Source: Candidatus Woesearchaeota archaeon (GTDB lineage: Archaea > Nanobdellota > Nanobdellia > SCGC-AAA011-G17 > UBA489). Taken from it: a stretch of DNA of 41,487 bases. Of this stretch, positions 4,962 to 34,223 are shown one piece after another. The notes under the pieces are model-generated. The model worked only from the letters and a program-made list of their open reading frames with translations, did not search any database and had not been told where the DNA came from. Each line of letters starts with the position of its first letter. Within the stretch, counting starts at the first letter, position 1. A program made the translations under genes and the position numbers. The stretch lies in assembly GCA_018658955.1 (NCBI GenBank), contig JABIPM010000040.1:1-41487 (forward strand), written 5' to 3'.

Positions 4962-5002
4962 GTCAAAAAGCTTAAAAACAGAAATTCTATAAAAAAGACA
5001 CG

Positions 5003-5260: not shown

Positions 5261-5266
5261 TTAAAA

Positions 5267-10252: not shown

Positions 10253-10264
10253 GGAGAAAATAAA

Positions 10265-16763: not shown

Positions 16764-17465
16764 ATGATAATAGATAGCCATACCCACCTTGGATTTGAAG
16801 ATATGTACCAAAAACAGAACCCTAGAGAGTTAATTAAGCTAATGGACAGGGCAGGAATAGATAAATCTGTAATATTTCCATTTGGCCCAGTTTTTTCAAA
16901 AAATCAATCTTATCAATCAGAAAACATCAAAATTAGTAAATGTTCAAACAACCCTCGATTCATTACATTCGGGAGAGTGAATCAATTAGCTCCAGATTCT
17001 CTTGAAGAAGTAGAAAGAATTAAAGATTTAGATTTTAAAGGAATAAAAATTCACACAGATGCAGCACCGTTAAACACTTACAGAGATTTAGTAAAAAAGT
17101 TAAATGAGTACTGCCTTCCAATAATGATTCATGCAGGTAACAATGAAAACTCAAATGTTGAGAATTTAAAACATCTCGAATATGAAGGAAATATCATCAT
17201 AGGTCACGGAGGAAAAGATAATATTTCAAAAGCAATTGAATTAGTAAATTCAAGAGATAATTTTTACATTGAAACTTCATTGCTTTCATTAAGTAGAACA
17301 AAAAGGTTAGTTAGACAAGTTAAGGACAAATCCAAAATTCTTTTTGGATCAGATGCTCCCTACGATTTACCAGAATTAGAAGTTAAAAAAATAATGCATG
17401 CTTGCGATCATGATAGGAAATTAGTAAGAGACATATTAGGAAAAAACTTGGAAAAAATACTATGA
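16764..17465 (+). CDS. TIM-barrel metal-dependent hydrolase (amidohydrolase superfamily)
   Basis: 233 aa. N-terminal MIIDSHTHLG is the HxH metal motif. Later ..IMIHAG.., ..IIGHGG.. and ..LFGSDAPY.. supply the His/Asp ligand positions. Confidence 0.7.
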   Translation: MIIDSHTHLGFEDMYQKQNPRELIKLMDRAGIDKSVIFPFGPVFSKNQSYQSENIKISKCSNNPRFITFGRVNQLAPDSLEEVERIKDLDFKGIKIHTDAAPLNTYRDLVKKLNEYCLPIMIHAGNNENSNVENLKHLEYEGNIIIGHGGKDNISKAIELVNSRDNFYIETSLLSLSRTKRLVRQVKDKSKILFGSDAPYDLPELEVKKIMHACDHDRKLVRDILGKNLEKIL

Positions 17466-18553
17466 ATACAAAAACAAAATATAACACTTTAATCTTGACA
17501 AGAGGGAGAGATCTAACTCCTGATTCTACAGAGTTAGCATTAGCATATGAAGCAACAAATAGAAATCATAAAGTTTCTTTTCAAAAACCAGAAAATTTCT
17601 ACGTTAAAAATGGAAAATTATTTGGAATTACTCGCAGGCCAAATGCAGAGACTATAGACTCCTACGAGGCATTTGGACAATACATCCAAAATGAAACTTT
17701 CATGAAACGAGAAAATCTCCCATTAGAAGAATTTGATATTATTTTTTCAAGAGTAGCATATAGAAATCCGGATGAAAAAAGAGAATTTGAAAATATGTGT
17801 ATTTATTTATCTTCATTAGAATCTTTAAATCCTAAAGTTACAATGGTAAATTCTCCATTAGGTATGTTGATGGCGGGAGCAAAAATTTACGAAACACTTA
17901 ATCTGAAAACTTACATGCCAGAAACACACATCACTAAAGATTCTAAACGTCTTGAAACTTTGATGAAGGAAGCGGCAAGAGACAACCAAGGAATTATTGG
18001 AAAACCTATTGATGGGATGGGTGGAAGCGGAGTTATTGAAATTCCTCCTGCTGGTTACAGAGGATTAAGGACTTTAGCAGAAGTACTAGTTGAACCTTTA
18101 GAAAGTACTTCTTCAATTCCTGCAATTATTCAATCAAAATTAGAAGGTGTAGATCGTAGAATTTTAATAATGGGCGAAGAAATTCTTGGAGCATATAAAA
18201 GAGTCCCTGCTGAAGAAGAGATAAGGGCAAATATTCATTTAGGCGGAACGGTTCAAGCTTATGAGTTACAAGATATCGATAGAATGATTGTAAGTTATGT
18301 TGCAGAAAAAATCAAAAAAGATGGATTATATTTTTGTGGATTAGACATTATGGGTCCAGAAGAGGACGGAACACTTGAGAATACTAGGATGCTAGAACTA
18401 AATGTAAGGTGCCCAGGTTCAATTAGAAGTTTAGAGTCTTTAGCTGAATCCTATCATGAAAAAACAGAAATTAGAAATGCAGCAGCAAGCAAGATAATAA
18501 GGTATGCTGAAAATCTACATGAAAATAAGCTGTCTTTATTAGCTCAAGAGTAA
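17462..18553 (+). CDS. GshB-like ATP-grasp ligase (glutathione synthetase / RimK superfamily)
   Basis: 363 aa. GKPIDGMGGSGVIEI, RILIMGEEILGAYKRVPAEEEIRANIHLGGTVQAYEL and YFCGLDIMG...LELNVRCPGSIRSLE parallel the remembered E. coli GshB blocks (..HRGNLAAGG.., ..GLDIIG..TEINVTSP..). The start overlaps the upstream stop (ATGA). Confidence 0.7.
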   Translation: MNTKTKYNTLILTRGRDLTPDSTELALAYEATNRNHKVSFQKPENFYVKNGKLFGITRRPNAETIDSYEAFGQYIQNETFMKRENLPLEEFDIIFSRVAYRNPDEKREFENMCIYLSSLESLNPKVTMVNSPLGMLMAGAKIYETLNLKTYMPETHITKDSKRLETLMKEAARDNQGIIGKPIDGMGGSGVIEIPPAGYRGLRTLAEVLVEPLESTSSIPAIIQSKLEGVDRRILIMGEEILGAYKRVPAEEEIRANIHLGGTVQAYELQDIDRMIVSYVAEKIKKDGLYFCGLDIMGPEEDGTLENTRMLELNVRCPGSIRSLESLAESYHEKTEIRNAAASKIIRYAENLHENKLSLLAQE

Positions 18554-20422: not shown

Positions 20423-20911
20423 ATGAAAAATTTCAAAGAAAACTACAAATTATTACAAGAAAAATACAGTTTACCTTCATATGAAGAATTAGATAAAAAC
20501 TTCGAAATCTTAAATTCAGAAGAAAAAGTAGAATTATCATTCCCTTTAGCATTAGTAAGAAGAAGAATGTGCGAGAAACTATCTTGGATATCTTCAGGAA
20601 TTCAAACAATCATTCAACCGAATCCATCTTCACTAGTTAGTATAGAAGAGTCTTCATTTTTCACAAAAGAAGAAAAGAAGGAAGAGTTAATCAAACTATT
20701 AAAAGAATTAATGCATCTAGTAAGATCTTCAGTAGACTTAGATATAGAAAATTCAGAAGAAAAAGATGCAATTAATATTAATGAAACTTTCAAAAAATGG
20801 ACTGAACTAAAACCTAAAATAAAAGAATTTAGTAAAAAGATGAAAGATGGTTGGAAAAAAGAAACAAAAGTTACTAAAAAACCAAAAACCACTCACAATT
20901 ACTTGGGTTAG
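20423..20911 (+). CDS. Hypothetical K/E-rich 162-aa protein, first gene of the pilus-like locus
   Basis: ORF 61 nt from the divergent sigma-like gene, followed on the same strand by the pilin genes. No family was recognised. Confidence 0.5.
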   Translation: MKNFKENYKLLQEKYSLPSYEELDKNFEILNSEEKVELSFPLALVRRRMCEKLSWISSGIQTIIQPNPSSLVSIEESSFFTKEEKKEELIKLLKELMHLVRSSVDLDIENSEEKDAININETFKKWTELKPKIKEFSKKMKDGWKKETKVTKKPKTTHNYLG

Positions 20912-20948
20912 CCAAAACCTTAATAAATTTAGATTCGACCTTATAATT

Positions 20949-21548
20949 ATGAAAAAGGGACAGGTGTATCTTCTAGCAGTAATTATTATGGGATTTCTAA
21001 TCTACACAATGTTAACTCCCGTAAACTTTCTAAAAACTTCAGAGATAGAAGACGATTTTCAAGAAATTTCTAAAAATTATCAATTAGAAAGTGCAAAACT
21101 TCTAAATGAATTATTAAACACTCAAAACGTAAATCAAAATTTTGTAGAAGAAAGATTTCTTAATTTCACTGTTGCATTTACTTCATACTCCAAATCAAAG
21201 AATCCTAACTTTGGATTAGTTTATGCATTTCCATTTAACAACAAAGTTTTTTTAGGAAATTATGCAGATTCACCCCTAAATTATTCATCTACTGATCAAA
21301 TAGTGGGATGTCTTTCGGATGTAACTGCTTCAATATCTTTTGCGGGATTAAACATATCTTCTCCAAATATAGATGTGGATAACTACAGGCAATGTATAAA
21401 TTCAACAACTTACCCTCAAGAGGATAAACTAATATTAACTTTAGACGGTTTAGAATATCCTTTTACTTTAACATCCTCAAGTTCAAACTTAGTAATAATC
21501 AACAAAGAAAGCATTGAAGGAAATACTAAAATATTCATAAGTGAATAA
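20949..21548 (+). CDS. Prepilin-like protein (class III signal peptide)
   Basis: The internal ATG of track ORF 20847 gives MKKG|QVYLLAVIIMGFLIYTML. That is a short basic N-terminus, Gly, then a hydrophobic helix. Confidence 0.6.
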   Translation: MKKGQVYLLAVIIMGFLIYTMLTPVNFLKTSEIEDDFQEISKNYQLESAKLLNELLNTQNVNQNFVEERFLNFTVAFTSYSKSKNPNFGLVYAFPFNNKVFLGNYADSPLNYSSTDQIVGCLSDVTASISFAGLNISSPNIDVDNYRQCINSTTYPQEDKLILTLDGLEYPFTLTSSSSNLVIINKESIEGNTKIFISE

Positions 21549-21583
21549 AAAAACTAATAAACCAAATAAATCACTATAATAAC

Positions 21584-22015
21584 ATGCAAAATAACAAAAG
21601 AGGAATCTCGCCAGTAATCAGTTGGATATTAATAATTGGTTTTACCATGACTTTGGCAGGTTTTTCAATGACCTGGATGAGAGAAACAGCATCAACAACA
21701 TCTGAAAAAATGGTAGATAATATAGGCACCGATTTAGAATGTGGAGATGTTTCAATAAATGCATATAACACTTCAGGAAGCTGTGCAAAGATAAATATCA
21801 CTAACAAGGGATTTTTTACAATTACAGGAGTAAAGTTTAGATCAGGAAAGGGATTAAGCAATATTACCCAAACAATAATTCCAACAACTGAAATAGAAAT
21901 AAGTACTGGGGTAACTAATTTTTTACCAAATAATGAACTCGGAATAATTCCTGAAATATCTTATAAAGATAAAACACTAGTTTGTATAAATAAAGAGATT
22001 AGAATAAAATGTTAA
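21584..22015 (+). CDS. Archaeal type IV pilin / flagellin-N-terminal-domain protein
   Basis: MQNNKRG|ISPVISWILIIGFTMTLAGF matches the archaeal pilin N-terminal motif ([KR]G-[IV]SP[VL]I). Confidence 0.8.
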   Translation: MQNNKRGISPVISWILIIGFTMTLAGFSMTWMRETASTTSEKMVDNIGTDLECGDVSINAYNTSGSCAKINITNKGFFTITGVKFRSGKGLSNITQTIIPTTEIEISTGVTNFLPNNELGIIPEISYKDKTLVCINKEIRIKC

Positions 22016-22464
22016 ACAAAAAAGGAGTTTCACCATTAATCGCAACAAGTATTCTAATTGGATTCGCAGTAGTTATCACCACAATTGCATTTCTTTTTGG
22101 AGGAGAGTTAATCGAAGAGATTCAACAAAAACAAGGAAAGACTTTAACAAAAACAATTCAATGTGATAACATGCATTTCAAAGTTACAGACATTATTAAT
22201 GACGATATTTGGTTATTAAATGATGGGACTACAGATATTCACGCATTCATGTTAAGATATGGGGGAGATGATGCAGAATATATAAATTCTCATTTAAAGA
22301 CTACAATTCCCGAAGGTGGATCAGGAAAAATAACTGCTGCAACCCCTCCAGGGATAGGAGCACTAAAATCATTAACAATTTTTGCTAAAAGTGCTGCAGG
22401 GCCAGAAGGAAGCATAATCTGGGGAACCTGTGGATCTACAGAAACATCTGTAAACTTCCCATAA
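22009..22464 (+). CDS. Archaeal type IV pilin
   Basis: MLNKKG|VSPLIATSILIGFAVVITTIAF. Overlaps the previous gene by 7 nt. Confidence 0.8.
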   Translation: MLNKKGVSPLIATSILIGFAVVITTIAFLFGGELIEEIQQKQGKTLTKTIQCDNMHFKVTDIINDDIWLLNDGTTDIHAFMLRYGGDDAEYINSHLKTTIPEGGSGKITAATPPGIGALKSLTIFAKSAAGPEGSIIWGTCGSTETSVNFP

Positions 22465-22515
22465 TAGCAAACTTTAAGAATAACTAATAATAAAAATTAA
22501 ACGAGGTAATTAACA

Positions 22516-22980
22516 ATGATTAAAAACAAAAGAGGAATTTCACCATTAATCGCAACAGTTCTATTAATTGGATTCGCAGTAGCTCTGGCGGCTGTAGTAA
22601 TGACTTGGGGTCTAGATTTTATTCAATCAACAGCAGACACAACAGAGCAACAAACTGAAAACACATTAACTTGTGCAACAGAACTTTCTTTCACAATAAC
22701 TAATGTAGATCTTACTAGCGGAGAAGTTACAGTAGATAATCGTGGACAAGTAGATATTAGTTCGGTCACTTTTAGAGTTTATACTGCTACTGGAGTAACA
22801 ACTAATGAAACTATTGAAACCATTGCAAAATTTGAAGTTAAAACATTAACACCTACAATCGGGGGAGATAGTTTAGTAGATTCAACAGTAACTAAAGTTG
22901 AAGCAATCGCAACAGTACCTGGAAGTAATGGACAAGGCGACATAACTTGTTCACAAAATTTACAAAAATATCTAATTTAA
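22516..22980 (+). CDS. Archaeal type IV pilin (candidate major pilin)
   Basis: MIKNKRG|ISPLIATVLLIGFAVALAAVVMTWG. It has its own 51-nt upstream gap with SD-like gaggt, and is followed by a hairpin plus T-run. Confidence 0.8.
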   Translation: MIKNKRGISPLIATVLLIGFAVALAAVVMTWGLDFIQSTADTTEQQTENTLTCATELSFTITNVDLTSGEVTVDNRGQVDISSVTFRVYTATGVTTNETIETIAKFEVKTLTPTIGGDSLVDSTVTKVEAIATVPGSNGQGDITCSQNLQKYLI

Positions 22981-22984
22981 GTTT

Positions 22985-23015
22985 AATGGAGTAATCACTC
23001 CATTTTTTCTTTTTA
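22985..23015 (+). terminator. Hairpin + oligo-T after the candidate major pilin gene
   Basis: aatggagt-aatc-actccatt is an 8-bp stem with a 4-nt loop, running into ttttttcttttt. Confidence 0.5.
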
Positions 23016-23022
23016 TTTTCCT

Positions 23023-23559
23023 ATGACTATTAATTCCAAAGAAAAGCAAGGCCAAATCTGGATATCTGCAATTCTATTTTTATCAATAGGAGTTATGATT
23101 ATTGTATTAATGCTCTCTGCAATTATGCCTGTAGTAGATAGGTTAGCAGACAGAAACACACTTTCTTCAACAAAGAACCTTTTACTTGAAATTGATGAAA
23201 CAATCAAAACAGTTGCAAGAGAGGGACCTGGAAGTCAAAGAAACTTAGATATCACATTAAACAAAGGAGAATTATATTTTCAAAACGACACATATCAAAT
23301 AAAGTGGATCATGGAAACAGAATCAGAATTAATGGAAAAGGGAATAGATATACCTGAAGGAAACATAGTACAACATCTAAATGCTACAAGAGTAGACCAA
23401 ATATCCAATTTAATGCTCTGGATAACTTCAGATAAATACAACACATCAATTAACTCACGGTTCTCTAATCCTTTCACCGGAAAACACACATTAACAGTAA
23501 AACACACGGGAATAATCCTCCTTAATGAGAATCCATTAATTGAACTAAAAATAACTTAA
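23023..23559 (+). CDS. Prepilin-like protein
   Basis: MTINSKEKQG|QIWISAILFLSIGVMIIVLMLSAI has a class III-like N-terminus. Confidence 0.6.
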   Translation: MTINSKEKQGQIWISAILFLSIGVMIIVLMLSAIMPVVDRLADRNTLSSTKNLLLEIDETIKTVAREGPGSQRNLDITLNKGELYFQNDTYQIKWIMETESELMEKGIDIPEGNIVQHLNATRVDQISNLMLWITSDKYNTSINSRFSNPFTGKHTLTVKHTGIILLNENPLIELKIT

Positions 23560-23615
23560 TAAGATACTATTAAAAAAGCCAAAACACAGTATATAATTAT
23601 CAAAACTAGAGGTGT

Positions 23616-25205
23616 ATGGTGGATAATTCAACTAAAAGAGGGTCTTCTGAATCAGTGCCTATTCCGGCAGCAGATTTTGGAATAGAAAAAGTTACAGAGA
23701 TTCCATCCTTGCCAGATTTCTCAGAAAAAAGAAAAATAGATATCAAATATCCTTTAATCAAACCTTATACTTACGCACATATTCATTGGGATGATGATCA
23801 AAAAGAAGTGATTTACGAATTAAAAGAACCTTCCTTAAATCTAAAAGAGAAACATGTTTTAAAAGAATTAGAAAAAGGATTAGAAGAATTAATCAATATC
23901 AGTTTCATCAACATCAAAGATAAAGAAGCAGTTATTTCTTATCTAGAAAAAAATGCAAGAGTGTTATTGGCAGAGTTAGGATTAAAACCCCCAAAAGAAG
24001 TATTTCTAAAATTAATGTATTATATCTACAGGGACTTCGTTGGTTTAAACAGAATTGAAGCATTAATGAATGATTACCATATAGAAGATATTGAATGTAA
24101 TGGTTCAAATTTAGAATTGTACATAGTTCATAGAAAGTATAGAAATTTAAAAACAAATATCACTTTCAAATCAAATGATGAATTAACTTCTTTCGTTGAA
24201 AAACTTTCACAAAAATGCGGAAAATATATTTCATATGCTAGTCCGATTTTAGATGGAAGATTACCCGATAAGAGCAGAGTTAATGCAACATACACTCAAG
24301 ATATTTCTTCAAGAGGTCCAACATTCACAATTCGTAAATTTACTAGTGAGCCTTGGAGCCCAATCAAATTAATAGAAGTAAAAACTGCAAGTCCAGAACT
24401 GTTAGCATACTTATGGCTGCTAATAGAATATGAATCAAACATAGTAATAATCGGTGGAACAGGATCAGGTAAAACTTCATTCCTAAATAGTATAGCGTTC
24501 TTTATACCTCCACAATCAAGAATTGTTTCAATAGAAGATACTCATGAATTAAATTTATTACATACTAACTGGCTACCTTCAGTTTCTCGTGAAGCAACAG
24601 GAGTGGGGGCAGAAGGAAAATTCGGAGAAGTTTCTCTATTCACATTACTTAAGGCAAGTTTTAGGCAAAGACCGGACTATGTTATTGTTGGAGAGATTAG
24701 GGGTCAAGAAGCATTTGTTTTATTCCAGGGAGCTGCATCAGGACATCCAACAATGTGCACTATGCATGCAGAAGATGTTGAAACAATGATTAGAAGGTTA
24801 GAAACACCTCCTATTAGTTTGCCCCCTTCTTTAGTAGAAACTTTAGATGCCGTTTGTGTAATGGCGCAAACAAAAATAAATGGTCAAGAAGTAAGGAGAT
24901 TAAAAAGTGTGACTGAAATATTAAAAGTTGGACAGCAAGTAGGATCATTAGAGAAAAATGTTCCATTTGTTTGGGATCCAAAAACAGATCAATTCTTTTT
25001 CAAAAAACAAAGTGCATTATTTCAAAAATTACAAAGAGAGTTTGGAATGGACGAAAAATCTATTCAAAAAGAATTCCAAAGAAGAACAACCTTGCTTTGG
25101 ACCCTATATAAAAAAGGAATTTCCGGATACTCCGAAGTACAAAAAATAATCAGTGCATATTCAAAAACCCCTAACGAAGTGCTAAGAAGATTTAACATTC
25201 CATAA
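23616..25205 (+). CDS. Type II/IV secretion-family assembly ATPase (archaeal FlaI/PilB-like)
   Basis: 529 aa. Walker A is IIGGTGSGKTSFLNS, Asp/Walker B is RIVSIEDTHEL...RPDYVIVGEIRG, and the His box is GHPTMCTMHA. SD-like gaggtg lies upstream. Confidence 0.9.
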   Translation: MVDNSTKRGSSESVPIPAADFGIEKVTEIPSLPDFSEKRKIDIKYPLIKPYTYAHIHWDDDQKEVIYELKEPSLNLKEKHVLKELEKGLEELINISFINIKDKEAVISYLEKNARVLLAELGLKPPKEVFLKLMYYIYRDFVGLNRIEALMNDYHIEDIECNGSNLELYIVHRKYRNLKTNITFKSNDELTSFVEKLSQKCGKYISYASPILDGRLPDKSRVNATYTQDISSRGPTFTIRKFTSEPWSPIKLIEVKTASPELLAYLWLLIEYESNIVIIGGTGSGKTSFLNSIAFFIPPQSRIVSIEDTHELNLLHTNWLPSVSREATGVGAEGKFGEVSLFTLLKASFRQRPDYVIVGEIRGQEAFVLFQGAASGHPTMCTMHAEDVETMIRRLETPPISLPPSLVETLDAVCVMAQTKINGQEVRRLKSVTEILKVGQQVGSLEKNVPFVWDPKTDQFFFKKQSALFQKLQREFGMDEKSIQKEFQRRTTLLWTLYKKGISGYSEVQKIISAYSKTPNEVLRRFNIP

Positions 25206-25210
25206 TCAAG

Positions 25211-25393
25211 ATGTCTTTAGAATCAATAAAACAAAATGCTCAAAGCATAATCTCTGCAAATGAAAAATACTCCCAACTAGTTCTAAAACCAAATCACGAT
25301 AAAAAAGAAGCAGAAAAATTAAAAAAATACATCTTAACACTATCTAATGCCATTTCTAAACAGATAGGAGAAGTGAAGAAAGATGTCGATTAG
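25211..25393 (+). CDS. 60-aa helical protein, paralogous to the N-terminus of the next gene
   Basis: SIKQNAQSIISANEKYSQLVLKPNHDKKEAEKLKKYI aligns with SISDNAQEIVSLVSQLEKELVPKKKHEIIEKIEKANQRI of ORF 25383. Overlaps that ORF by 11 nt. Confidence 0.5.
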   Translation: MSLESIKQNAQSIISANEKYSQLVLKPNHDKKEAEKLKKYILTLSNAISKQIGEVKKDVD

Positions 25394-26648
25394 TGATAAT
25401 GCTCAAGAAATAGTTTCTTTAGTTTCTCAATTGGAAAAAGAACTTGTTCCTAAAAAGAAACATGAAATTATTGAAAAAATAGAAAAGGCAAATCAAAGAA
25501 TTCATTCAGAAGCCTCTTCAGAGTCAAGGCCGTTATTATATACTGGAGTAATGGACAAACTTCCAGTTAAAGAAAGAGCACCAGAACCTTCTCCTCCTGA
25601 ACCAGAAACAATTCAAACTAAACCTATTCAGAAAAAAAGAACATCCCCTAAAACTAAAAAGAAGCTAATGGAAGAATTAAAAATTAATCAAGAAGATTTA
25701 GAAAAAGCTTATCCTAAAAGAAAAACTAAGGTTTCACAAAAAAGCGATTTTACTGTATATGTTACTTCTCCGTTTGGAAAAATTTCAAATCAGTTCTTTG
25801 GAAAGTATGTTTCAAGTTTATTTGATAAAAAGAATTCATTCATTAGAAATTTAGCAGATTCAGTAAGAATCTCAGGAATGCCCATATTATCAAGAACTTA
25901 TATTTGTATGATGTATTTTGCTTCACTAGTCGGCGCAATGATTGCATTGTTTCTAGCAATGGTTGTTTCATATCTAGCAGGATTAAATACATCTGCCATG
26001 ATAATATCTATGTTTATTTCTTTAATTGGCGTAGGAATTTTAGTATTTCTTGGAATGTATGCCTACCCTGCATCAGAAGCAGCAGCAAAATCAAGAGCAA
26101 TAGATAATGACTTACCTTTCGCAACAATTCACATGGCTGCAGTAGCAGGTTCAGGCGCACAACCAATAGCAATGTTTAGATTGTTATTAAAATCCGGAGA
26201 ATACAAAGGCCTAGAGAGTGAAATAAAAAAGATTGTAAATTTAGTTAATCTATTTGGCTATGATCTTTCGACAGCATTAAAGAATGTGTCATTAAGAACC
26301 CCCTCTAGAAGACTTAAAGAATTATTAACTGGAATTGCCTCAACGATTGAATCCGGAGGAAGTCTAAAATCTTATCTTAAAAGTGTGGCAAATGAATCAA
26401 TGGCAACCTACAGATTAGAAAGAAAGAAATATGTTGAATCTTTAGCAACATATTCAGATATTTATACTGGAGTTTTAATCGCAGCACCATTATTATTCAT
26501 TGTGGCGCTTACAATTATAAACATGGTTGGAGGACAGATTGGTGGATTAGAGGTATCTACAATAGCATGGGGTGGAACATTAATTGTTTTACCTATTGTA
26601 AATATATTATTTTACCTTTTCCTAAACATCACACAACCTGGAGAATAA
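25383..26648 (+). CDS. Pilus platform membrane protein, T2SSF-domain (FlaJ/TadB/TadC-like), part 1
   Basis: 421 aa. A long cytoplasmic N-terminal region is followed by TM helices. One T2SSF-like cytoplasmic domain is present (..YDLSTALKNVSLRTPSRRLKELLTGIASTIESGGSLKSYLKSVANES..). Confidence 0.75.
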   Translation: MSISDNAQEIVSLVSQLEKELVPKKKHEIIEKIEKANQRIHSEASSESRPLLYTGVMDKLPVKERAPEPSPPEPETIQTKPIQKKRTSPKTKKKLMEELKINQEDLEKAYPKRKTKVSQKSDFTVYVTSPFGKISNQFFGKYVSSLFDKKNSFIRNLADSVRISGMPILSRTYICMMYFASLVGAMIALFLAMVVSYLAGLNTSAMIISMFISLIGVGILVFLGMYAYPASEAAAKSRAIDNDLPFATIHMAAVAGSGAQPIAMFRLLLKSGEYKGLESEIKKIVNLVNLFGYDLSTALKNVSLRTPSRRLKELLTGIASTIESGGSLKSYLKSVANESMATYRLERKKYVESLATYSDIYTGVLIAAPLLFIVALTIINMVGGQIGGLEVSTIAWGGTLIVLPIVNILFYLFLNITQPGE

Positions 26649-26649
26649 A

Positions 26650-27510
26650 ATGTCAAGAGTAAAATTTAAACCAGTATATATGTTGAGCATCTTAGCAGGA
26701 ATTATGATAGTTCTTCTTGCAGTTAAGTTTCAATGGGGTCAAAGATTTTTCTTTCCATTAATCATTTTATCATTAGTTATTTCATCACTTCATTTTTGGA
26801 TCGATTTTTTTACAGAACAGAATAGACAAAAATTAATCGAAGTCATGTTTTTAGAATTTATCAGAAATTTATCAGAATCAATTAAAGCCGGAATTTCTAT
26901 TCCAAGATCTATTCAAAACATAGCAAAAAGAAATTATGGAGAACTAACTCCCTATATCCAAAAATTATCAAATCAAATAGAGTGGGGAATTCCCACAAGA
27001 AAAGCACTTCAAACCTTTGCAGAAGATACAGAGAACAGAGTAATAATAAGGTCCATTGCATTAGTTTCAGAAGCAGAAAAATCTGGAGGAGATATAACAG
27101 ACATATTTTCTTCAGTAGTTGAATCTGTAGTAAGTGTAAAACAAATAAAAGGAGAAAGAAAATCACAAATACATTCTCAAGTAGTTCAAGGATACATAAT
27201 CTATTACGTATTCATTGGAATAATGTTAGTCTTAGACTTATGGTTATTTCCACAACTGACAGGTGTAGAAACATCTTCTTCACTTCAAGCAGGTGCAAGT
27301 GGGATGGGTGGAATGGGCTTAGCTGGAGCAGGTGCAAGCGCATTAGACATGGGTCCAATATTTTTAACATTAATTTTAATTCAAGGATTTTTTGCAGGGA
27401 TAATGATTGGTAAATTCTCAGAAGGAACAATAAAGAATGGATTATTACATTCATTGATAATGATGGTCTCAGCTGCACTACTCATTACAACACTAAAGGG
27501 AGGAATATGA
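26650..27510 (+). CDS. Pilus platform membrane protein, T2SSF-domain, part 2
   Basis: 286 aa. The sequence is ..FIRNLSESIKAGISIPRSIQNIAKRNYGELTPYIQKLSNQIEWGIPTRKALQTFAEDTENRVIIRSIALVSEAEKSGGDITDIF.. plus TM helices. It starts 1 nt after the previous stop. Confidence 0.75.
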   Translation: MSRVKFKPVYMLSILAGIMIVLLAVKFQWGQRFFFPLIILSLVISSLHFWIDFFTEQNRQKLIEVMFLEFIRNLSESIKAGISIPRSIQNIAKRNYGELTPYIQKLSNQIEWGIPTRKALQTFAEDTENRVIIRSIALVSEAEKSGGDITDIFSSVVESVVSVKQIKGERKSQIHSQVVQGYIIYYVFIGIMLVLDLWLFPQLTGVETSSSLQAGASGMGGMGLAGAGASALDMGPIFLTLILIQGFFAGIMIGKFSEGTIKNGLLHSLIMMVSAALLITTLKGGI

Positions 27511-28259
27511 TATCAAACAAAAAAGGAATTGGATATGTAGACTGGATTATTAGTATGGGATTATTCATACTGGTAGTTTCAATGACCTTCATATATCTTA
27601 AACCTGGAGTCACTCCTGAGTTTGAATCCAAAGACCTTATAGAATTAGTTGAATCTAATTTCCTCAAAGAGTATACTTGGTCTTCAATAAGCATTCCAAT
27701 TGCAGTACATAATTTATCAAGTTCAAATATTACAATAACAGGCGGAACAAACAATCAATGGAATATTTCCTCATACTATCTTAATTATTCTTCATTAATA
27801 CTGCATCCTAATTTTACAACAAACAATGTAATTTTAAAGTGCAAATCCCCGGGAGGCAATTGTAACACTCTTTTACATAACGGAATAAATCAAGGAATAT
27901 ATCTAATTTACTTAAAGAAAGACGGTGCAACAATCAACACATTTAATTTAAGTTACACTTGTAATCCTCCTCCATCAACATCCCCAGATTGCAATTTCAC
28001 AGTAGGTTCAAAAGAAATGTTTACTGGGTGGAACAAAGGAGACATAAATTCAATAACAGAACCCTATCAAACAAAGAAAGACGACTGGTCTTTCCCAGAA
28101 TCTAGGGACTTTTCAATTAAGTTCAATGGAGAGGATATACTAGCCCCAAATTATAAACCCTCAGAGCAAACAAATATTTACATAAAAGAATTATTAATTC
28201 AAACATTAGAAGGTGATGGTTTAAGATCATCTGCAAATACAACAATAAGTGTGTGGTAA
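27507..28259 (+). CDS. Large prepilin-like protein (250 aa)
   Basis: MISNKKG|IGYVDWIISMGLFILVVSMTFIYL. Many N-x-S/T sequons. The start overlaps the upstream stop (ATGA). Confidence 0.6.
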   Translation: MISNKKGIGYVDWIISMGLFILVVSMTFIYLKPGVTPEFESKDLIELVESNFLKEYTWSSISIPIAVHNLSSSNITITGGTNNQWNISSYYLNYSSLILHPNFTTNNVILKCKSPGGNCNTLLHNGINQGIYLIYLKKDGATINTFNLSYTCNPPPSTSPDCNFTVGSKEMFTGWNKGDINSITEPYQTKKDDWSFPESRDFSIKFNGEDILAPNYKPSEQTNIYIKELLIQTLEGDGLRSSANTTISVW

Positions 28260-28260
28260 A

Positions 28261-28704
28261 ATGAAAAACAAAAAAGGATTCATAAAAACATTAGAAGCAG
28301 TTTTAGCAATAATAGTTTTACTTTCATTAATATTTACATTAACACCTAAAACAGAAATAGATATTTCAAAACCAAATTCATTACAACAAGCACACAATAT
28401 TATGTTTTCAGAGATTTCTCAAAACATTTCATTTAGAGAGTGTATTCTTGATTTAACAAACAACAAAGAAATCAACAGTGCTCCAGGTTTCAACGATCCC
28501 TCAACAGGCCAATGTCTAACCTCCATCAACACCTTCCTAGAAACATACAGGCCACACGGTTACATTTACTTAGCAGAAGTTTGTGACAAATCTGCATCAT
28601 GTTTAGAAGGAGATTTACCAATAGACAAACAGATATATTCAGAAAGTATCATGTTAGCTTCAGACACTCCAAAAGTATTTAGAATTTACTTCTGGGAACG
28701 ATAG
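28261..28704 (+). CDS. Prepilin-like protein with a bacterial-looking G|F...LE N-terminus
   Basis: The ATG 1 nt after the upstream stop gives MKNKKG|FIKTLEAVLAIIVLLSLIFTL. The track ORF begins at an upstream GTG (28249). Confidence 0.6.
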   Translation: MKNKKGFIKTLEAVLAIIVLLSLIFTLTPKTEIDISKPNSLQQAHNIMFSEISQNISFRECILDLTNNKEINSAPGFNDPSTGQCLTSINTFLETYRPHGYIYLAEVCDKSASCLEGDLPIDKQIYSESIMLASDTPKVFRIYFWER

Positions 28705-28735
28705 AAATATAAACAATATAATTAATTAAACTAAA

Positions 28736-29728
28736 ATGGCAAGGAGGGATTTTATCATCACAGTTACATTAATTCTTGCAGCAGCTATGCTAGCAAATAA
28801 TTTAGATTCAGATTTAACAGGAATGCAAACTACGACGGGTAAAGGGCCAGATGCATTAGAGGGGCATAATGAATGTTTCATAGATACCTCACCCACAGGT
28901 CAAAAGAGTTTTTCTTGTAGGTCAGTTCAAGGACCTGGACAAGATCAATGTAGCTCATATGCAGACTGTGATGCTCAATGGGATTTATGCTGCACTTTAA
29001 CGACCTGTTCACCAGTTCAAGCAGGAACTTGTAAGGGAAGTTCATGCACTGCAAATTCAGATTGTCTAAATATTAAAGATGAAATAATCGTAACTAAAGA
29101 TTGCACAGGCAGAGACACAACAGGAAATAAAGACGCATGTATCTTTATTGGAAAGGGATTAGTTTGCGGAACAAGTTCAGACGAATCAAAGAAGTATTGT
29201 TGTGAATCAGATTCTTCTGGAGGGTGTAGCTGTAGTACAGAAATAAAAAATCCTTGTTCAAAGCAAGAAGACTGTTTGGGTGCAATGTGTTACGCAGAAG
29301 CGGCAGGAGAATCAGCTGCATGTAAAAAAGCAGTATCTTGTGTAATGAAAAATAGAAAAGATAGCGATTTATATCCGGATGATTATTGTGCACTAGCTTC
29401 AGAAGGGGCAGACAATAACAATCAGCCTTTACAATTCAAACCATTTAGGTGTGTTTGTCAAAAAGGGAGTAATCCTAATGGAAATAATAGATATTGCGAT
29501 GCCTGTGAGGGGACAATCACAAATTCCTTAGAAAAAAAAGCAGCAGATCAATGTAAAGAAATAGCTGATCAATTGGCTACAAATCCTAGTTTCTGTAATG
29601 GTTACAGCGCAGACTCATTTTATGCAGGAAACTCAAGTGGAAACTGTGATTCTGTTTGTGGTGAAGGAAAGGGAACAAAAGTATCTGCAAAAGGTTGTGA
29701 GGGTCACGTATTTTGTAAGTGTAATTAA
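28736..29728 (+). CDS. Secreted cysteine-rich protein with a SleB-like cell-wall hydrolase (Hydrolase_2-like) signature
   Basis: 330 aa with 34 Cys. The N-terminus MARRDFIITVTLILAAAMLA is a signal peptide with an RR-x-F motif. CYAEAAGESAACKKAVSCVMKNRKDSDLYPDDYC...QFKPF parallels the SleB-family hallmark Y.EARGE...(G)..AV..V..NR....FP...C...QF. G+C is visibly above background. Confidence 0.6.
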   Translation: MARRDFIITVTLILAAAMLANNLDSDLTGMQTTTGKGPDALEGHNECFIDTSPTGQKSFSCRSVQGPGQDQCSSYADCDAQWDLCCTLTTCSPVQAGTCKGSSCTANSDCLNIKDEIIVTKDCTGRDTTGNKDACIFIGKGLVCGTSSDESKKYCCESDSSGGCSCSTEIKNPCSKQEDCLGAMCYAEAAGESAACKKAVSCVMKNRKDSDLYPDDYCALASEGADNNNQPLQFKPFRCVCQKGSNPNGNNRYCDACEGTITNSLEKKAADQCKEIADQLATNPSFCNGYSADSFYAGNSSGNCDSVCGEGKGTKVSAKGCEGHVFCKCN

Positions 29729-30627
29729 TTCTTTTCAATCACAGCAATAAACAAACCATTTGTATCATAATATTGCGGCCAAATTTTAATATAATTTTTC
29801 AAACCACTTTTAATTTTATATCCATTTAATCTTGCAGGTTTAATTAATTTACAATCAGTATGGTCTTTCAAAAAACTTTCAATTAAATTTTCATCTTCCT
29901 CAGGTTCTAAACTACAAGTAACATAGACAATTCTTCCCTTTTTTTTCAAACAAGAGTAAGCTCGTCTCAATATCTTTTTTTGTAATCTTGCATACTTCTC
30001 AACAACTTTGGGATTCCATTCTTTCAATAATTTTTTAGTTTTAGCAGTTTTACCTTTAATCAATCCACTTCCAGTACAAGGCACATCCAATAAAATCCCA
30101 TCAAACTTTTCACTACAAAGATAATCTTCTCCTTTTTGGGCATCAAATTTAATTTTCTCAACACCACAACGTTCCATATTAATCTTCAAAATATTTCTTC
30201 TAAATCCATTAGGTTCATTAGCTTTCAAATATCCTTTTCCACCCATCAAACAAGCAATATTAAGCGTTTTTCCTCCAGGCGCAGCACACATATCTAAAAA
30301 CTTACTTCTGACCCCATACTTAAAATATTGAGCAGGAATCATACTAGGGGCCCCCATAGAAAAGATCATTCCTTTCTTATGTTGATCACTATTTCCTATG
30401 TCTCTTCGTCCAGTTTCATGTTCAATAAAGAATCCATTATTACACCAAGGAATTTTTTTTAATATCCACCCATCTTTTTCTAAACTTTTCCTAACAGAAT
30501 TAACAGAATAATTTAAAGTATTAATCTTAACACTCTTTCTTGCAAAATTATTTTCCACAGAATTTTTATACTCTTCAAAATTAGTTAACTTTTCGTATTT
30601 TTTCACAAATTTTTCTTTAAATTTCAT
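29725..30627 (-). CDS. NOL1/NOP2/Sun family RNA (cytosine-5) methyltransferase
   Basis: 300 aa. The SAM motif is DMCAAPGGKT. The catalytic motifs are ILLDVPCTGSG and YVTCSLEPEEDE. Confidence 0.85.
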   Translation of the reverse strand: MKFKEKFVKKYEKLTNFEEYKNSVENNFARKSVKINTLNYSVNSVRKSLEKDGWILKKIPWCNNGFFIEHETGRRDIGNSDQHKKGMIFSMGAPSMIPAQYFKYGVRSKFLDMCAAPGGKTLNIACLMGGKGYLKANEPNGFRRNILKINMERCGVEKIKFDAQKGEDYLCSEKFDGILLDVPCTGSGLIKGKTAKTKKLLKEWNPKVVEKYARLQKKILRRAYSCLKKKGRIVYVTCSLEPEEDENLIESFLKDHTDCKLIKPARLNGYKIKSGLKNYIKIWPQYYDTNGLFIAVIEKN

Positions 30628-31631
30628 ATGTAATCTAAAAGGGGAACATGTTCAACACCAATCTTTCCAACATAAAGTTTAGACATGTCTCCACCTTTCT
30701 CCGCGAAGTCTTTAACTTTCAAGAATCCTTTCAAGTATAAATGGTCTTTGGTAAATGCACCAGGTTTTGAGGTATCTCTTAATCCCCTTTTAGCACGTAA
30801 AGTTAATGTCCACGCATCACCCTTAGGAAAATATTCTAGCAATGCATTGTAAACCGCACTAAAACTATTTTTCAAACTCAGTTCATTTGCAAATACTCTT
30901 CCCGCATAGTTTTTTAAAATTCTAGGAGTTAACAAACCAGAACAATATTCATTATATGCTGCCAATCCTTCTTCAGTGTCTAAATAACCAGGAAAACCAA
31001 ACTTAAACATCTTATATTTACAAGCATTAGCATTTTCAGAGCGAGTAATGTGTGTCCCTATTTCATGTACGATTAAACGTTTAACATCGTTTTCAGAAAA
31101 ATCTCTATTTTTATTGATAAATAAAGTTCTATTTTTTACATTAAAAGTAGCTCCTGCAACCATTTCTTTCTCCTTAACGGTCCAATTAAGATTTTTTAAT
31201 GCAAATGTATCCATAAATTTTTTAGTCATTGAAAGTCGAGAATATCTTTTCCAAACATCTTCTTCATCACTTCGTAATATTTTTCTCGCCTCACAAATTA
31301 AATCACTAGAAGGTTTACCATAGGTCTTAATGGAATACTTAGTAAACTCTTTTTTACCAACATGCCTCAACATATTTAACATATTATTTAATTCACTAAT
31401 CTTACTTCTCAATAATTTTCCATAAACCGTATCGTCTGTTCTCAAGGACAACAAATGTTTTTCAACAGAATCATATTTAGAAAGATTCACACAATAATCA
31501 AATTTAGGATTGTAACTATTATTCCCAAACATCTTCTTCATTTCTTCAGAAGTATTAGTTGGTCCAAGAACAGAAATTCTAATCTTGCTATGTATTCTTG
31601 CCAAATCTCTATCCACTTTTTTAAGAAGCAT
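30624..31631 (-). CDS. DUF1704-type gluzincin metalloprotease-like protein (QEGLA-motif family)
   Basis: 335 aa. HEIGTHITRSEN is an HExxH motif. It is followed by GYLDTEEGLAAYNEY, an (Q/E)EGLA motif. The 4-nt overlap with the downstream methyltransferase gene suggests translational coupling. Confidence 0.7.
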   Translation of the reverse strand: MLLKKVDRDLARIHSKIRISVLGPTNTSEEMKKMFGNNSYNPKFDYCVNLSKYDSVEKHLLSLRTDDTVYGKLLRSKISELNNMLNMLRHVGKKEFTKYSIKTYGKPSSDLICEARKILRSDEEDVWKRYSRLSMTKKFMDTFALKNLNWTVKEKEMVAGATFNVKNRTLFINKNRDFSENDVKRLIVHEIGTHITRSENANACKYKMFKFGFPGYLDTEEGLAAYNEYCSGLLTPRILKNYAGRVFANELSLKNSFSAVYNALLEYFPKGDAWTLTLRAKRGLRDTSKPGAFTKDHLYLKGFLKVKDFAEKGGDMSKLYVGKIGVEHVPLLDYI

Positions 31632-31659
31632 ATAGACTCATAAAAAATTTCACTTATAT

Positions 31660-31803
31660 CTATTTCTTTATTGGAGTATCTTCTTCAACAATAATTGCAC
31701 CAGAATATCCACAATTTTTACAGTGATAAATTCCAGTCAATCCTCCAGCATAAAAATCAATAGCTCCAGAACCGCATTTTGGACAGCTTTTTTTACTAAC
31801 CAT
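31660..31803 (-). CDS. Unannotated 47-aa zinc-ribbon small protein
   Basis: The reverse strand reads MVSKKSCPKCGSGAIDFYAGGLTGIYHCKNCGYSGAIIVEEDTPIKK, with CPKC...CKNC. A TATA-like atatttaaaga lies about 25 nt upstream on that strand. The ORF is below the track cutoff. Confidence 0.5.
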   Translation of the reverse strand: MVSKKSCPKCGSGAIDFYAGGLTGIYHCKNCGYSGAIIVEEDTPIKK

Positions 31804-31823
31804 GATATCTTTAAAACAACAAT

Positions 31824-31833
31824 CTTTAAATAT
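31824..31833 (+). promoter_or_regulatory. TATA box for the tRNA-Val/tRNA-Gly pair (A/T box also usable on the opposite strand)
   Basis: ctttaaatat is centred about 30 nt upstream of tRNA-Val position 1. The same A/T block read on the minus strand sits about 25 nt upstream of the zinc-ribbon ORF. Confidence 0.45.
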
Positions 31834-31858
31834 GCTTTGAAAGTAGAATAAGACACAG

Positions 31859-31931
31859 GAGCCAGTGGTCTAGTGGCTATGACAGCGCCCTTACAAGGCG
31901 TTAATCGGAGGTTCGAGTCCTCCCTGGCTCA
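31859..31931 (+). tRNA. tRNA-Val (anticodon UAC)
   Basis: Acceptor GAGCCAG/CTGGCTC, anticodon stem GCGCC/GGCGT with loop CTTACAA, T arm GGAGG-TTCGAGT-CCTCC, discriminator A. Confidence 0.9.
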
Positions 31932-31938
31932 TTTTTAC

Positions 31939-32010
31939 GCGGTGGTAGTATAGTGGTTAGTATTCAACGTTGCCAACGTTGGGACTCGGGTTCGAACCCC
32001 GGCCGCCGCA
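31939..32010 (+). tRNA. tRNA-Gly (anticodon GCC)
   Basis: Acceptor GCGGTGG/CCGCCGC (one G-U pair), anticodon stem CAACG/CGTTG with loop TTGCCAA, T arm TCGGG-TTCGAAC-CCCGG, discriminator A. It lies 7 nt after tRNA-Val and is probably co-transcribed. Confidence 0.9.
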
Positions 32011-32015
32011 TAGGT

Positions 32016-32600
32016 TTATTTATACTGGGGATTGTGCCAACTCATAATACTAATTTCATTAAGTATATTAGAAATTCCCGAATTAATGAATTCGTTATTC
32101 TCAAAAAATTTTGTAGGTCCAGGTCCATTGGCCAAAAGTTCAATAAGCTCAGAATCTTTTCCTTTCAAATAGTCAATCATTTCCGTACCGAATCCTTTTC
32201 CCATGAATTTTTCATTACAATCAATTATTCCTAAATGGAGTATGTTTCCTTTACCAGTATAGTCTCTAAATCCTTCATATTTTTTAAGATCTGGAATCAA
32301 CACAGACGTGCCTTCAAGGTCAAATAATTTTCCAGGATTATTTAATCCATCAATCAAGGAATTCCATCCAACATCCTTGGAAGGATTGCCTAAGTAACAA
32401 GAAGCATAAATTAAAGGCTCATCATTTTCACAACCTACAACAAATAAATCTTGATTAAGAAATGGAGATCTATCGTCTGGATTGTTCCATCTCAAGTAAG
32501 TATAATTTTTATAATTGTTTTCAATCTCTTTAACTAACTCATTTTCATTGTCAGTAATATCATAAAATTTCATCTTAGAAAAACCTATAGTCTCCAGCAT
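32016..32600 (-). CDS. GNAT-family acetyltransferase-like protein
   Basis: 194 aa. ..LHLGIIDCNEKFMGKGFGTEMIDYLK.. resembles GNAT motif A (Q/R-x-x-G-x-G/A). ..NGPGPTKFFENNEF.. resembles the C-terminal FYEK-GF element. Confidence 0.55.
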   Translation of the reverse strand: MLETIGFSKMKFYDITDNENELVKEIENNYKNYTYLRWNNPDDRSPFLNQDLFVVGCENDEPLIYASCYLGNPSKDVGWNSLIDGLNNPGKLFDLEGTSVLIPDLKKYEGFRDYTGKGNILHLGIIDCNEKFMGKGFGTEMIDYLKGKDSELIELLANGPGPTKFFENNEFINSGISNILNEISIMSWHNPQYK

Positions 32601-33058: not shown

Positions 33059-33816
33059 CTTTCAAGAATTGGTTCAAGAGCCAGGTTAATAGTATTCATC
33101 CAAGAATCATTAAATTTTAGAGTACTTTGGTTTCTAACTTTTCCCAAAATTCCATTTCTTTGAAGATTGACAGCAATACCCTCTCCTAAATTATTGATTC
33201 TAAATGTAGAGCTATCGTAATTATCAGTTGTAAAATTATTAAATATTAATGAAAAATTATATTTTGCATCATCTGAAGATAGAGTTTTTCCACGAATGTT
33301 GATTGACCCATAACGAGGATTACTAAATTTAATATCTGCTTGCCTATTTTCATTTTTAGATCTTAAGTTTACGCTAAGTTCTAAATATTCGTTTGAATTA
33401 GGATTTCCGAATTTAGCAGAATACTCATTGTTAGTTATTTCAGAAGGATTAACTCTGAGTAACATATCAGAAACTAAGTTTTCTAACTCCTGAGGATTAG
33501 ATAAATAGTCTTTTCCATTTAACCATTCTTTAATTGCATTATCAAATTGTTGGACATTAGAATAAGATTCATTGGTTCTAGAAATTAAATGATTATAATC
33601 TGAATTTTTTTTAATAGAGATATCCTCTAAACCTTCAGAGGGTTTAGTTGTAGGTGTTTCAATTATTGATTCTAAGGATTTTTGAAAAACTGGAATTTCA
33701 ACAGCTGAAGACATTTCAATTTTTTTAGGCGGCGTAGGGCAAGCATATGAAATATACGTGGAGGCCCCAGCTAGGGCACCTAAAATTCCACAGTATATAT
33801 ATTTTAAAGAACTCAT
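33046..33816 (-). CDS. Hypothetical secreted or membrane-anchored 256-aa protein
   Basis: The N-terminal hydrophobic segment is YCGILGALAGASTYISYACP. The remainder is N/S-rich and looks beta-rich. The start overlaps the upstream stop (ATGA at 33813-33816). Confidence 0.55.
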   Translation of the reverse strand: MSSLKYIYCGILGALAGASTYISYACPTPPKKIEMSSAVEIPVFQKSLESIIETPTTKPSEGLEDISIKKNSDYNHLISRTNESYSNVQQFDNAIKEWLNGKDYLSNPQELENLVSDMLLRVNPSEITNNEYSAKFGNPNSNEYLELSVNLRSKNENRQADIKFSNPRYGSINIRGKTLSSDDAKYNFSLIFNNFTTDNYDSSTFRINNLGEGIAVNLQRNGILGKVRNQSTLKFNDSWMNTINLALEPILESYDD

Positions 33817-34223
33817 GGATTTATTAGTTCACTCTCTACTCCATCTGCATCATAACACTGACAATGGCCACATGAAATCTTTCTGTGATATTTGCCGTCC
33901 TTTTTTCCAAAACTCCTATCGTTGCAACTTTTTGCATCTCCTTGAGCATTATTGTGTCCTGCTTCAGTATCGGTACAAGTATCATGGCAAAATTGGTCTG
34001 CCTCATCTTGTGCAGCAGAATCTGCTTCTTTTTGGGTGGACCCAGTTCCACATGCTTTGACATCTTGGTTTTTTGCAATTGCTCCAGGGCATTGAAGCTT
34101 TTCTTGTCCACTTGCACTATCCTCTGCAGCACCGATACTAGAAGTTTGTCCATAAACAAAACTAGTACTAGAAATCACAAATAACGTCATGATAACCAAT
34201 AATATTTTAATATTTCTTTTCAT
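33813..34223 (-). CDS. Small secreted cysteine-rich protein (8 Cys), G+C-elevated
   Basis: 136 aa. The signal peptide is MKRNIKILLVIMTLFVISSTSFVYG|Q. The mature part carries 8 Cys, including FCHDTCTD and SCGHCQC. Three overlapping shadow ORFs in the track reflect the locally higher G+C. Confidence 0.6.
   Translation of the reverse strand: MKRNIKILLVIMTLFVISSTSFVYGQTSSIGAAEDSASGQEKLQCPGAIAKNQDVKACGTGSTQKEADSAAQDEADQFCHDTCTDTEAGHNNAQGDAKSCNDRSFGKKDGKYHRKISCGHCQCYDADGVESELINP

Follow-up and report, generated by a model that had tools for sequence, protein, structure and literature searches.

A putative exported, cysteine-rich Hydrolase_2-like protein encoded on a Candidatus Woesearchaeota contig

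The gene and its encoded modules

The window analyzed here is a stretch of 41,487 nucleotides (nt) from a Candidatus Woesearchaeota archaeon (assembly GCA_018658955.1, contig JABIPM010000040.1, positions 1 to 41,487 of the forward strand). The gene of interest, at 28736..29728 on the + strand, is a complete open reading frame (ORF) of 330 amino acids (aa), the longest ORF of its region, and encodes a putative exported, Hydrolase_2-like protein with 34 cysteines. An earlier reading of this DNA, made without database searches (hereafter the sequence-only reading), had described its product as a secreted protein with about 10% Cys and a resemblance to the SleB-type murein hydrolases, closing a pilus locus. 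The Cys count was borne out, with a content of 10.3% compared to 0–5.9% in the window's remaining 40 ORFs, and the peptides it had quoted were all found in the translation (MARRDFIITVTLILAAAM at aa 1–18, CSSYADC...SDC at aa 72–110, CYAEAAGES...DDYC at aa 185–218, and QFKPF at aa 233–237). Given a background of ~1.3% Cys, the occurrence of 34 such residues has a binomial P of ~4e-20, and the excess is therefore not explained by chance.

The gene is functional and under purifying selection, judged by a dN/dS of 0.18 overall (0.13–0.26 per module) in comparison with an ortholog of 80% identity, in which 34 of the 34 Cys are kept. Rfam and tRNA scans returned no feature overlapping the gene. The number of Cys is even in each module of the protein, with 10 in aa 23–115, 8 in aa 116–174, and 16 in aa 175–330, a distribution that would be compatible with full disulfide pairing.

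The C-terminal half of the protein (aa 175–330, 16 Cys; 29258..29725, + strand) is a genuine but divergent Hydrolase_2/SleB-type catalytic domain, as the sequence-only reading had suspected. In an exhaustive profile search with five close homologs as the query and 1.84 billion representative proteins as the target, 95 proteins were recovered at E ≤ 1e-3, with bona fide Hydrolase_2 proteins retrieved at E-values of 1e-6 to 1e-3; Pfam assigns 81 of the 98 pooled proteins to Hydrolase_2 at E ≤ 1e-3 (best E = 4e-33). An hhalign comparison of the Cys-rich clade to which the window protein belongs (20 sequences, described below) with 77 ordinary Hydrolase_2 proteins gave a probability of 99.1% and an E-value of 1.1e-18 over 128 columns, spanning aa 171–329. 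The pooled profile also matched solved SleB structures when run against PDB sequences, with E ~3e-26 for the catalytic domains 4FET and 4F55; PDB sequence searches with the single sequence or the five-sequence profile yielded no match.

Structural comparisons led to the same family. While a first AlphaFold2 (AF2) model built on a five-sequence alignment was unusable (predicted local distance difference test, pLDDT, of 40), the model built on the 98-sequence alignment reached a pLDDT of 88–98 for aa 115–330, and 92–98 in the catalytic domain. A Foldseek search of the PDB returned SleB chains (4f55/4fet) as the top three matches, with probabilities of 0.93–0.99 and template modeling (TM) scores of 0.50–0.57 normalized to the target, and the next matches had E > 5. 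In the viral library BFVD, the best 18 matches were phage SleB-type cell wall hydrolases (E of 1.4e-5 to 2.8e-2), followed by noise, and a PHROGs scan gave two weak endolysin-family matches.

Several observations weigh against interpreting the protein as a SleB-type, peptidoglycan-cleaving enzyme. The sole match in a Pfam scan of the full protein, Hydrolase_2 (PF07486, aa 191–295), scored 15.2 bits (E = 0.035), below the gathering cut-off of 27 bits, and the sole NCBIfam match, SleB (TIGR02869, aa 174–216), scored 13.7 bits versus a cut-off of 236.5. The 20-sequence clade profile alone reached SleB in the PDB at E-values of 0.7–0.98 only, the Foldseek E-values for the SleB chains were modest (0.016–0.047), and the alignment underlying the AF2 model included ordinary Hydrolase_2 proteins, making the model partly dependent on the sequence evidence. 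Furthermore, SleB and CwlJ are specialized for the spore cortex, with SleB needing the cortex-specific muramic delta-lactam, and the substrate specificity of SleB is for this reason not transferable to the window protein.

Low individual scores are shared by its relatives: three of the five closest homologs matched Hydrolase_2 weakly when scanned one by one, with E = 0.022 at best, and none of P0006–P0015, which follow them in the clade, attained the Pfam cut-off individually, the highest of these ten scores being 26.1 bits. Taken by itself, the single-sequence Pfam scan thus gave no significant Hydrolase_2 match, a result that was overturned by the profile and structure tests. The protein does lie outside SleB proper (TIGR02869), having no PG_binding_1 match, a partial alignment confined to aa 174–216, and an archaeal genome. 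An endoglucanase-related protein, the top PDB match of the 20-sequence clade profile (E = 0.11), was judged spurious.

The residues of a SleB-type active site, including the catalytic Glu that the sequence-only reading had singled out for checking, are in place. The E188-A-A-G-E192 motif (29297..29311, + strand) forms part of C185-Y-A-E188-A-A-G-E192-S, which lines up with Y-x-E-A-R-G-E-S, the consensus of the family, and with Y-G-E-S-R-G-E in SleB. From this alignment and its conservation, E188 (GAA, 29297–29299) is the predicted catalytic Glu; it corresponds to the first Glu of the SleB motif, which we take to be the catalytic residue of that enzyme (E151 in B. anthracis and E157 in B. cereus, compatible with PDB chain numbering). 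E188 is kept in 20/20 members of the Cys-rich clade and in ≥90% of the 98 pooled sequences, E192 in 10/20 clade members only, and N206-R207, Q233-F234, and G323-H324-x-F326 are also present in the window protein. In PMC12331253 (citing Li 2012 and Jing 2012), one catalytic Glu is described as essential in SleB, and in T6EC3, a SleB-like effector of a type VI secretion system (T6SS), the E108Q substitution abolishes toxicity (PMC11148199).

The Cys-rich clade comprises 21 representatives with 6.7–10.8% Cys, compared to 0–4.7% in ordinary Hydrolase_2 matches, and is monophyletic in a neighbor-joining tree computed without support values; a homolog search with the clade profile returned six proteins only. 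Most of the Cys in aa 116–330 (20 out of 24) are each kept in 18 or more of the 20 clade members, and C180 and C218 are common to the clade and ordinary secreted Hydrolase_2 proteins, being found in ≥90% of the pooled proteins.

The clade is defined by a Cys-rich beta-module at aa 116–174 (29081..29257, + strand), in which each of eight Cys (C123, C135, C144, C155, C156, C164, C166, and C174) is kept in 18–20 of 20 members. AF2 predicts six short strands here (pLDDT 88–95), and the module, which precedes the start of the hhalign match at aa 171, is missing from ordinary Hydrolase_2 proteins; it may possibly serve as a substrate-binding element. A likeness of the C-x-CC-x-C pattern to hevein and chitin-binding domains was considered and then dropped, having no supporting match. 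The catalytic domain itself carries a clade-specific insertion, R-C-V-C...C-D-A-C (29447..29509, + strand), which falls in a gap in ordinary Hydrolase_2 proteins. Its four Cys (C239, C241, C254, and C257), each kept in 18–20 of 20 clade members, are spaced as CxC...CxxC and may either be paired in two disulfides or bind a metal. The remaining module, a Cys-rich insert at aa 23–115 (28802..29080, + strand; 10 Cys), is lineage-specific, occurring only in the window protein and the 80% orthologs. Its AF2 pLDDT is <50 over most of its length, its omega of 0.26 marks it as constrained, and as a sole query it retrieved no homologous proteins, with a local tblastn matching the orthologs only. Pfam searches of the insert and mid-module together (aa 23–174) at E ≤ 10 gave nothing credible.

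This group, a Cys-rich sister clade of Hydrolase_2 that has an extra conserved beta-module, sits under the Pfam threshold, and is common to DPANN archaea and some bacteria, appears to be new. It had no name or annotation in any source searched, and no link between SleB/Hydrolase_2 and DPANN was found in the literature searched.

The first 22 residues (28736..28801, + strand), in which MARRD leads into a hydrophobic helix of 15 residues, form a predicted N-terminal export signal or membrane anchor, with an AF2 helix at aa 2–20 and a hydrophobic maximum at aa 7–23; they are 95% identical to those of the 80% ortholog (omega 0.14). The sequence-only reading had seen an RR-x-F signal of the Tat type here. 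That interpretation is unsupported because the twin Arg is not conserved: the window site, A-R-R-D-F-I-I, has already become KR in the 80% ortholog (P0002), P0003–P0005 have KK or nothing comparable, and there is no conserved S/T-R-R-x-F-L-K. TatC was not detected among the window ORFs scanned, the scans not covering every ORF. Clade members beyond P0001–P0005, bacterial ones included, possess ordinary signal peptides, and from the residues present a Sec-type signal peptide or N-terminal (type II) anchor seems more likely than Tat. As aa 1–30 contain no class III prepilin site ([KR][GAS]), and hence no [KR]-G prepilin motif, the protein is not a pilin-like subunit.

Genomic context and transcription

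Upstream of the gene, and considered here as context only, lies a seemingly complete archaeal type IV pilus-like locus (20423..28704, + strand) composed of prepilin-like ORFs, a T2SSE/PilB ATPase (23616–25205), and two T2SSF membrane proteins (25383–27510). Five ORFs, at 21584, 22009, 22516, 27507, and 28249, start with N-K-[KR]-G, the archaeal prepilin motif, which leads into a hydrophobic helix. The first three of these are tandem, near-identical prepilins in which the motif is continued directly by [IV]SP[LV]I, and the larger prepilin-like ORFs at 27507 and 28249 overlap their neighbors; the ATPase carries a PilB3_C domain. No prepilin peptidase was found among the scanned ORFs of 20423–28704. 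The hydrolase gene is the last + strand gene after this genuine type IV pilus-like locus, and the position given to it by the sequence-only reading holds.

This arrangement is kept only in L001–L003 and L009, which represent the window lineage and the 80% ortholog; a related-locus search with the five-sequence alignment found two Woesearchaeota GTDB representative metagenome-assembled genomes (MAGs) encoding relatives. In seven other archaeal homolog contexts, no pilus genes occur within 5–10 kb. Two of the homologs (P0003 and P0005) lie between gatA and the diphthamide synthase (dph2)/DHH/ftsZ genes, P0008 adjoins aminoacyl-tRNA synthetases, P0006 adjoins aEF-1alpha, and P0016 adjoins a tRNA-intron endonuclease. 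Another, P0007, from a marine Tara mesopelagic sample (0.1–0.22 um), is flanked by L35Ae/L10e on one side and, on the other, by an ORF of 601 aa together with a kinase of the APH family (L012 8001–8885 / L013). The same gene set as in the P0007 context, minus the hydrolase, is found at 153–5791 of the window, and the gene has therefore been relocated within Woesearchaeota genomes.

Separately, we noted that the bacterial clade member P0015, from a Gram-negative organism with Mla and a sigma-54 activator, adjoins a prepilin peptidase (Peptidase_A24; the pair at L016 5550–6467 and 7001–7951), the only other pilus-related neighbor seen in the clade. Upstream of P0006, an ORF of >1739 aa (L017 2–5218) runs off the end of its archaeal contig, and the archaeal MAG carrying P0016 has a TFIIB gene with a LAGLIDADG intein (820 aa; L019 9031–11493).

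A TATA-box-like ATATAAA (28707..28713, + strand) is located 29 nt before the ATG of the hydrolase gene, inside the 31-nt gap after the preceding stop codon, and the gene has no Shine-Dalgarno (SD) motif before it. The three pilus genes just upstream, in contrast, overlap each other, carry GGAG-type SD motifs, and have no TATA-like box. Similar boxes at -29 to -32 precede the window genes that are first in their transcription units (3117, 7858, 16189, and 35244), and TATA-like boxes stand at a similar distance before the homologs in five other genomic contexts. The gene thus probably forms an independent transcription unit with its own archaeal promoter and a leaderless or near-leaderless mRNA. 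As part of the explanation that we favor, its position after the pilus operon would more plausibly be a lineage-specific accident of gene order than a conserved coupling.

On the other side (29725–31631, - strand), an RsmB/F-like rRNA methyltransferase gene converges with the hydrolase gene, the stop regions overlapping by 4 nt, and behind it lies a homolog of the MATCAP/DUF1704 metallopeptidases (PF08014, E = 1e-49), a family known for the tyrosine carboxypeptidase that associates with microtubules in eukaryotes. The orthologous locus of the 80% relative differs by an indel: the interval holding tRNA-Val and tRNA-Gly in the window (~31631–32016) contains, in that relative, an ORF resembling LAGLIDADG_3 homing endonucleases (L001 13250–13954). 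A second relatively Cys-rich small ORF is present at 33813–34223 (- strand; 136 aa, 5.9% Cys, G+C 0.387, no Pfam match). Elsewhere in the window, 16764–18553 contains a bacterial-type glutathione synthetase, GshB (PF02955, E = 2.8e-31), directly downstream of an amidohydrolase, with a DoxX-family membrane protein nearby (14315–14716). Glutathione synthesis is unusual in archaea, and GshB may relate to thiol/disulfide handling. An operon at 9809–12798 combines NrdR (a bacterial-type repressor), a class II ribonucleotide reductase, and a dUTPase.

Proposed function, alternatives, and origin

We consider it reasonably probable, though well short of certain, that this is an exported Woesearchaeota (DPANN) protein of three disulfide-rich modules, transcribed from its own promoter, which acts as a SleB-type peptidoglycan-cleaving enzyme against a bacterial wall. 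Under this proposal, a Sec-type signal peptide or N-terminal membrane anchor would export the protein, leaving it extracellular or surface-anchored, and up to 17 disulfides would stabilize it in the extracellular milieu. E188 would act as the general acid that cleaves the glycan backbone of peptidoglycan between N-acetylmuramic acid and N-acetylglucosamine (MurNAc-GlcNAc), in a reaction that, by analogy with SleB, is probably that of a lytic transglycosylase. As substrate, the enzyme could meet either loose fragments of murein or the intact wall of a bacterium that serves as partner, prey, or competitor, and the outcome could be either a local breach of the wall at a contact site or the release of nutrients. 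The sequence-only reading had likewise named a bacterial wall as the target, and for a tiny archaeon of symbiotic type, itself devoid of a bacterial-style wall, this is the most plausible substrate, because murein transglycosylases are described as normally absent in Archaea (PMC8204110).

The choice of substrate is also where the best-surviving alternative arises. The enzyme might instead act on a non-murein polymer, such as chitin or other N-acetylglucosamine (GlcNAc) polymers, the pseudomurein of a methanogen host, or the glycosylated envelope of the archaeon itself. Specificity is not readable from sequence, lysozyme- and transglycosylase-like folds include chitin-active relatives, and relatives of the window protein come from the chitin-rich marine water column (Tara mesopelagic, 0.1–0.22 um). 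The characterized Hydrolase_2 members, however, all act on peptidoglycan (PMC12331253, PMC11148199, PMC7807722), the bacterial members of the clade carry signal peptides in organisms that contain murein, and no chitin- or pseudomurein-binding Pfam domain was detected in the isolated scan of the insert and mid-module (E ≤ 10). We thus regard a non-murein substrate as unlikely.

A broader proposal treats the whole clade as a contact-dependent, wall-breaching tool exchanged between ultra-small DPANN archaea and bacteria that live as predators or epibionts (P0009 bears the label Bdellovibrionales), which in this Woesearchaeon was recruited beside the pilus locus so that attachment to a bacterial host and murein cleavage could cooperate. 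We view this as quite unlikely. Were it true, the locus would provide direct genomic evidence of marine Woesearchaeota parasitizing bacteria, not archaea, and the beta-module would be a new murein-recognition domain.

The role of the pilus carries its own alternative, in which the protein is an effector that is co-expressed and co-delivered with the pilus and opens the bacterial wall at the point of pilus contact, close to the pilus-coupled delivery suggested by the sequence-only reading. The gene lies on the same strand, 31 nt past the last pilin-like gene, in an arrangement kept in the 80% ortholog over several contigs; specialized lytic transglycosylases of bacteria are often encoded in pilus or secretion loci, and P0015, as noted, adjoins a prepilin peptidase. 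Nonetheless, the adjacency is restricted to the window lineage, with the seven other archaeal contexts being free of pilus genes, and a TATA-like box of its own, combined with the absence of an SD, sets the gene apart from the overlapping, SD-bearing pilus genes. The class III [KR]G signal carried by five ORFs of the locus is also missing from the protein, and in an archaeon without an outer membrane, T2SS-like export would be unneeded. Coupled delivery was accordingly not borne out, and we consider this effector model improbable.

Equally doubtful, in our assessment, is a non-catalytic role in which the SleB-like fold binds glycans as an adhesin and tethers the archaeon to its partner without cutting. 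The strong divergence of the domain, below the Pfam threshold, would fit such a role, as would the extra Cys-rich modules, which resemble those in adhesive and binding proteins, and the possible membrane anchor; attachment was moreover suggested by Castelle et al. for DPANN proteins with murein transglycosylase domains (PMC8204110). Against it, E188 is invariant (20/20) while E192 varies in 10/20, the pattern expected from catalysis, and the N-R and Q-F motifs are kept.

Regarding the origin of the gene, the window is archaeal, as seen from genes for L10e, ABCE1/RLI, a class II ribonucleotide reductase, and five tRNAs, together with a wyosine radical S-adenosylmethionine (SAM) enzyme in the syntenic locus, and has a G+C of 31.9%. 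The closest relatives of the window protein are all archaeal, and P0001–P0005, from Woesearchaeota, form one subclade at 49–80% identity. In the clade tree, the archaeal members (P0001–P0008 and P0016) interleave with the bacterial P0009, P0011, and P0015; P0011 and P0015 have Nuo, Mla, and sigma-54 neighbors, and the label of P0009 is that of a Bdellovibrionales MAG, its contig being 3.3 kb long and the binning uncertain. Since the wider superfamily consists overwhelmingly of bacterial and phage proteins, the gene is likely to stem ultimately from bacteria, with an old inter-domain transfer in one direction or the other.

The sequence-only reading had further taken the high G+C of the gene as a sign of acquisition. 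The raised value is real (0.383, with 0.318 +/- 0.028 as the mean of the genes) and is explained by amino-acid composition, since the excess lies entirely at the second codon position, as expected for a protein rich in Cys, Gly, Ala, and Ser (G+C of 0.505 at position 2, GC2; 0.218 at position 3, GC3, compared to a background of 0.211 +/- 0.030). A bacterial gene recently transferred into this Woesearchaeon, for which one could cite the G+C value, the mainly bacterial and phage superfamily with its interleaved archaeal and bacterial clade members, and the differing places of the gene among related genomes, is therefore highly improbable, given that GC3 equals the background, that the Woesearchaeota subclade at 49–80% identity points to long residence, and that the closest relatives are archaeal throughout. 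A bacterial origin is thus plausible in the ultimate sense, and a recent acquisition marked by G+C is not supported.

Relation to known wall-active enzymes

Every DPANN archaeon brought into culture has an archaeal host (PMC11291902), and bacterial hosts for Woesearchaeota and Pacearchaeota have so far been argued from SLT/GH23-domain proteins (PMC8204110, PMC9723730). The window protein adds a second, independent (predicted) murein-lytic family to this argument. Its fold, chemistry, and ecological concept are already known, and it extends a published concept without overturning current ideas. The sampled clade members score below the gathering cut-off, and surveys based on Pfam thresholds would for this reason undercount the peptidoglycan hydrolases of archaea; the conserved disulfide-rich beta-module could, in addition, be a new wall-binding domain. 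The protein is small, expressible, and strongly conserved, with a clear residue to mutate, and its activity on candidate walls could indicate host range.

The closest characterized counterparts are SleB and CwlJ of Bacillus (4F55, 4FET), which have the same fold and, like the window protein, the catalytic Glu in an E-x-x-G-E motif and the N-R, Q-F, and G-H-x-F motifs. The window protein differs in having no PG_binding_1 domain, YpeB partner, or sporulation context, in its archaeal host, in the 16 Cys and the CxC...CxxC insertion of its catalytic domain, and in the two additional modules rich in Cys. The phage and proteobacterial Hydrolase_2 proteins, which are endolysins and periplasmic enzymes annotated as cell wall hydrolase SleB, provide the best structural matches (E down to 1.4e-5, TM up to 0.71 normalized to the target) and the best sequence-profile matches; ordinary members of this family are ~110–250 aa long with 0–4.7% Cys, and are without both the aa 116–174 module and the internal insertion.

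Use of this family against bacteria has precedents in T6EC3, a SleB-fold T6SS interbacterial toxin that acts on vegetative walls (PMC11148199), and in the ladybird beetle cwh, a Hydrolase_2 protein employed against bacteria by an organism without murein (PMC7807722). Both are likened to the window protein by family and fold only, as they are not Cys-rich and follow other delivery routes (the T6SS and the animal secretory pathway, respectively).

In terms of proposed biology, the nearest relations are archaeal. Woesearchaeota and Pacearchaeota encode extracellular proteins with SLT/GH23 murein transglycosylase domains, from which lives as episymbionts or predators of bacteria have been proposed (PMC8204110, PMC9723730), and archaea at large encode modular, Pfam-defined peptidoglycan hydrolases, such as Woldo/Danwoldo (PMC12352652). 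All would share with the window protein the role of an extracellular, murein-active archaeal enzyme. Their SLT/GH23, M23, and glucosaminidase families are, however, unrelated to its catalytic domain, and the proteins are giant (up to ~3,000 aa) or recognizable by Pfam. With 330 aa and no SLT-family Pfam match at E ≤ 10, the window protein stands outside the DPANN SLT/GH23 group, and with a sub-threshold catalytic match and no Pfam match in aa 23–174, it also stands outside the modular hydrolases in the sense of PMC12352652. Lacking an SLT match and any wall-binding domain known to Pfam, and with its catalytic match under the threshold, this protein would be passed over by surveys defined by SLT or Pfam.

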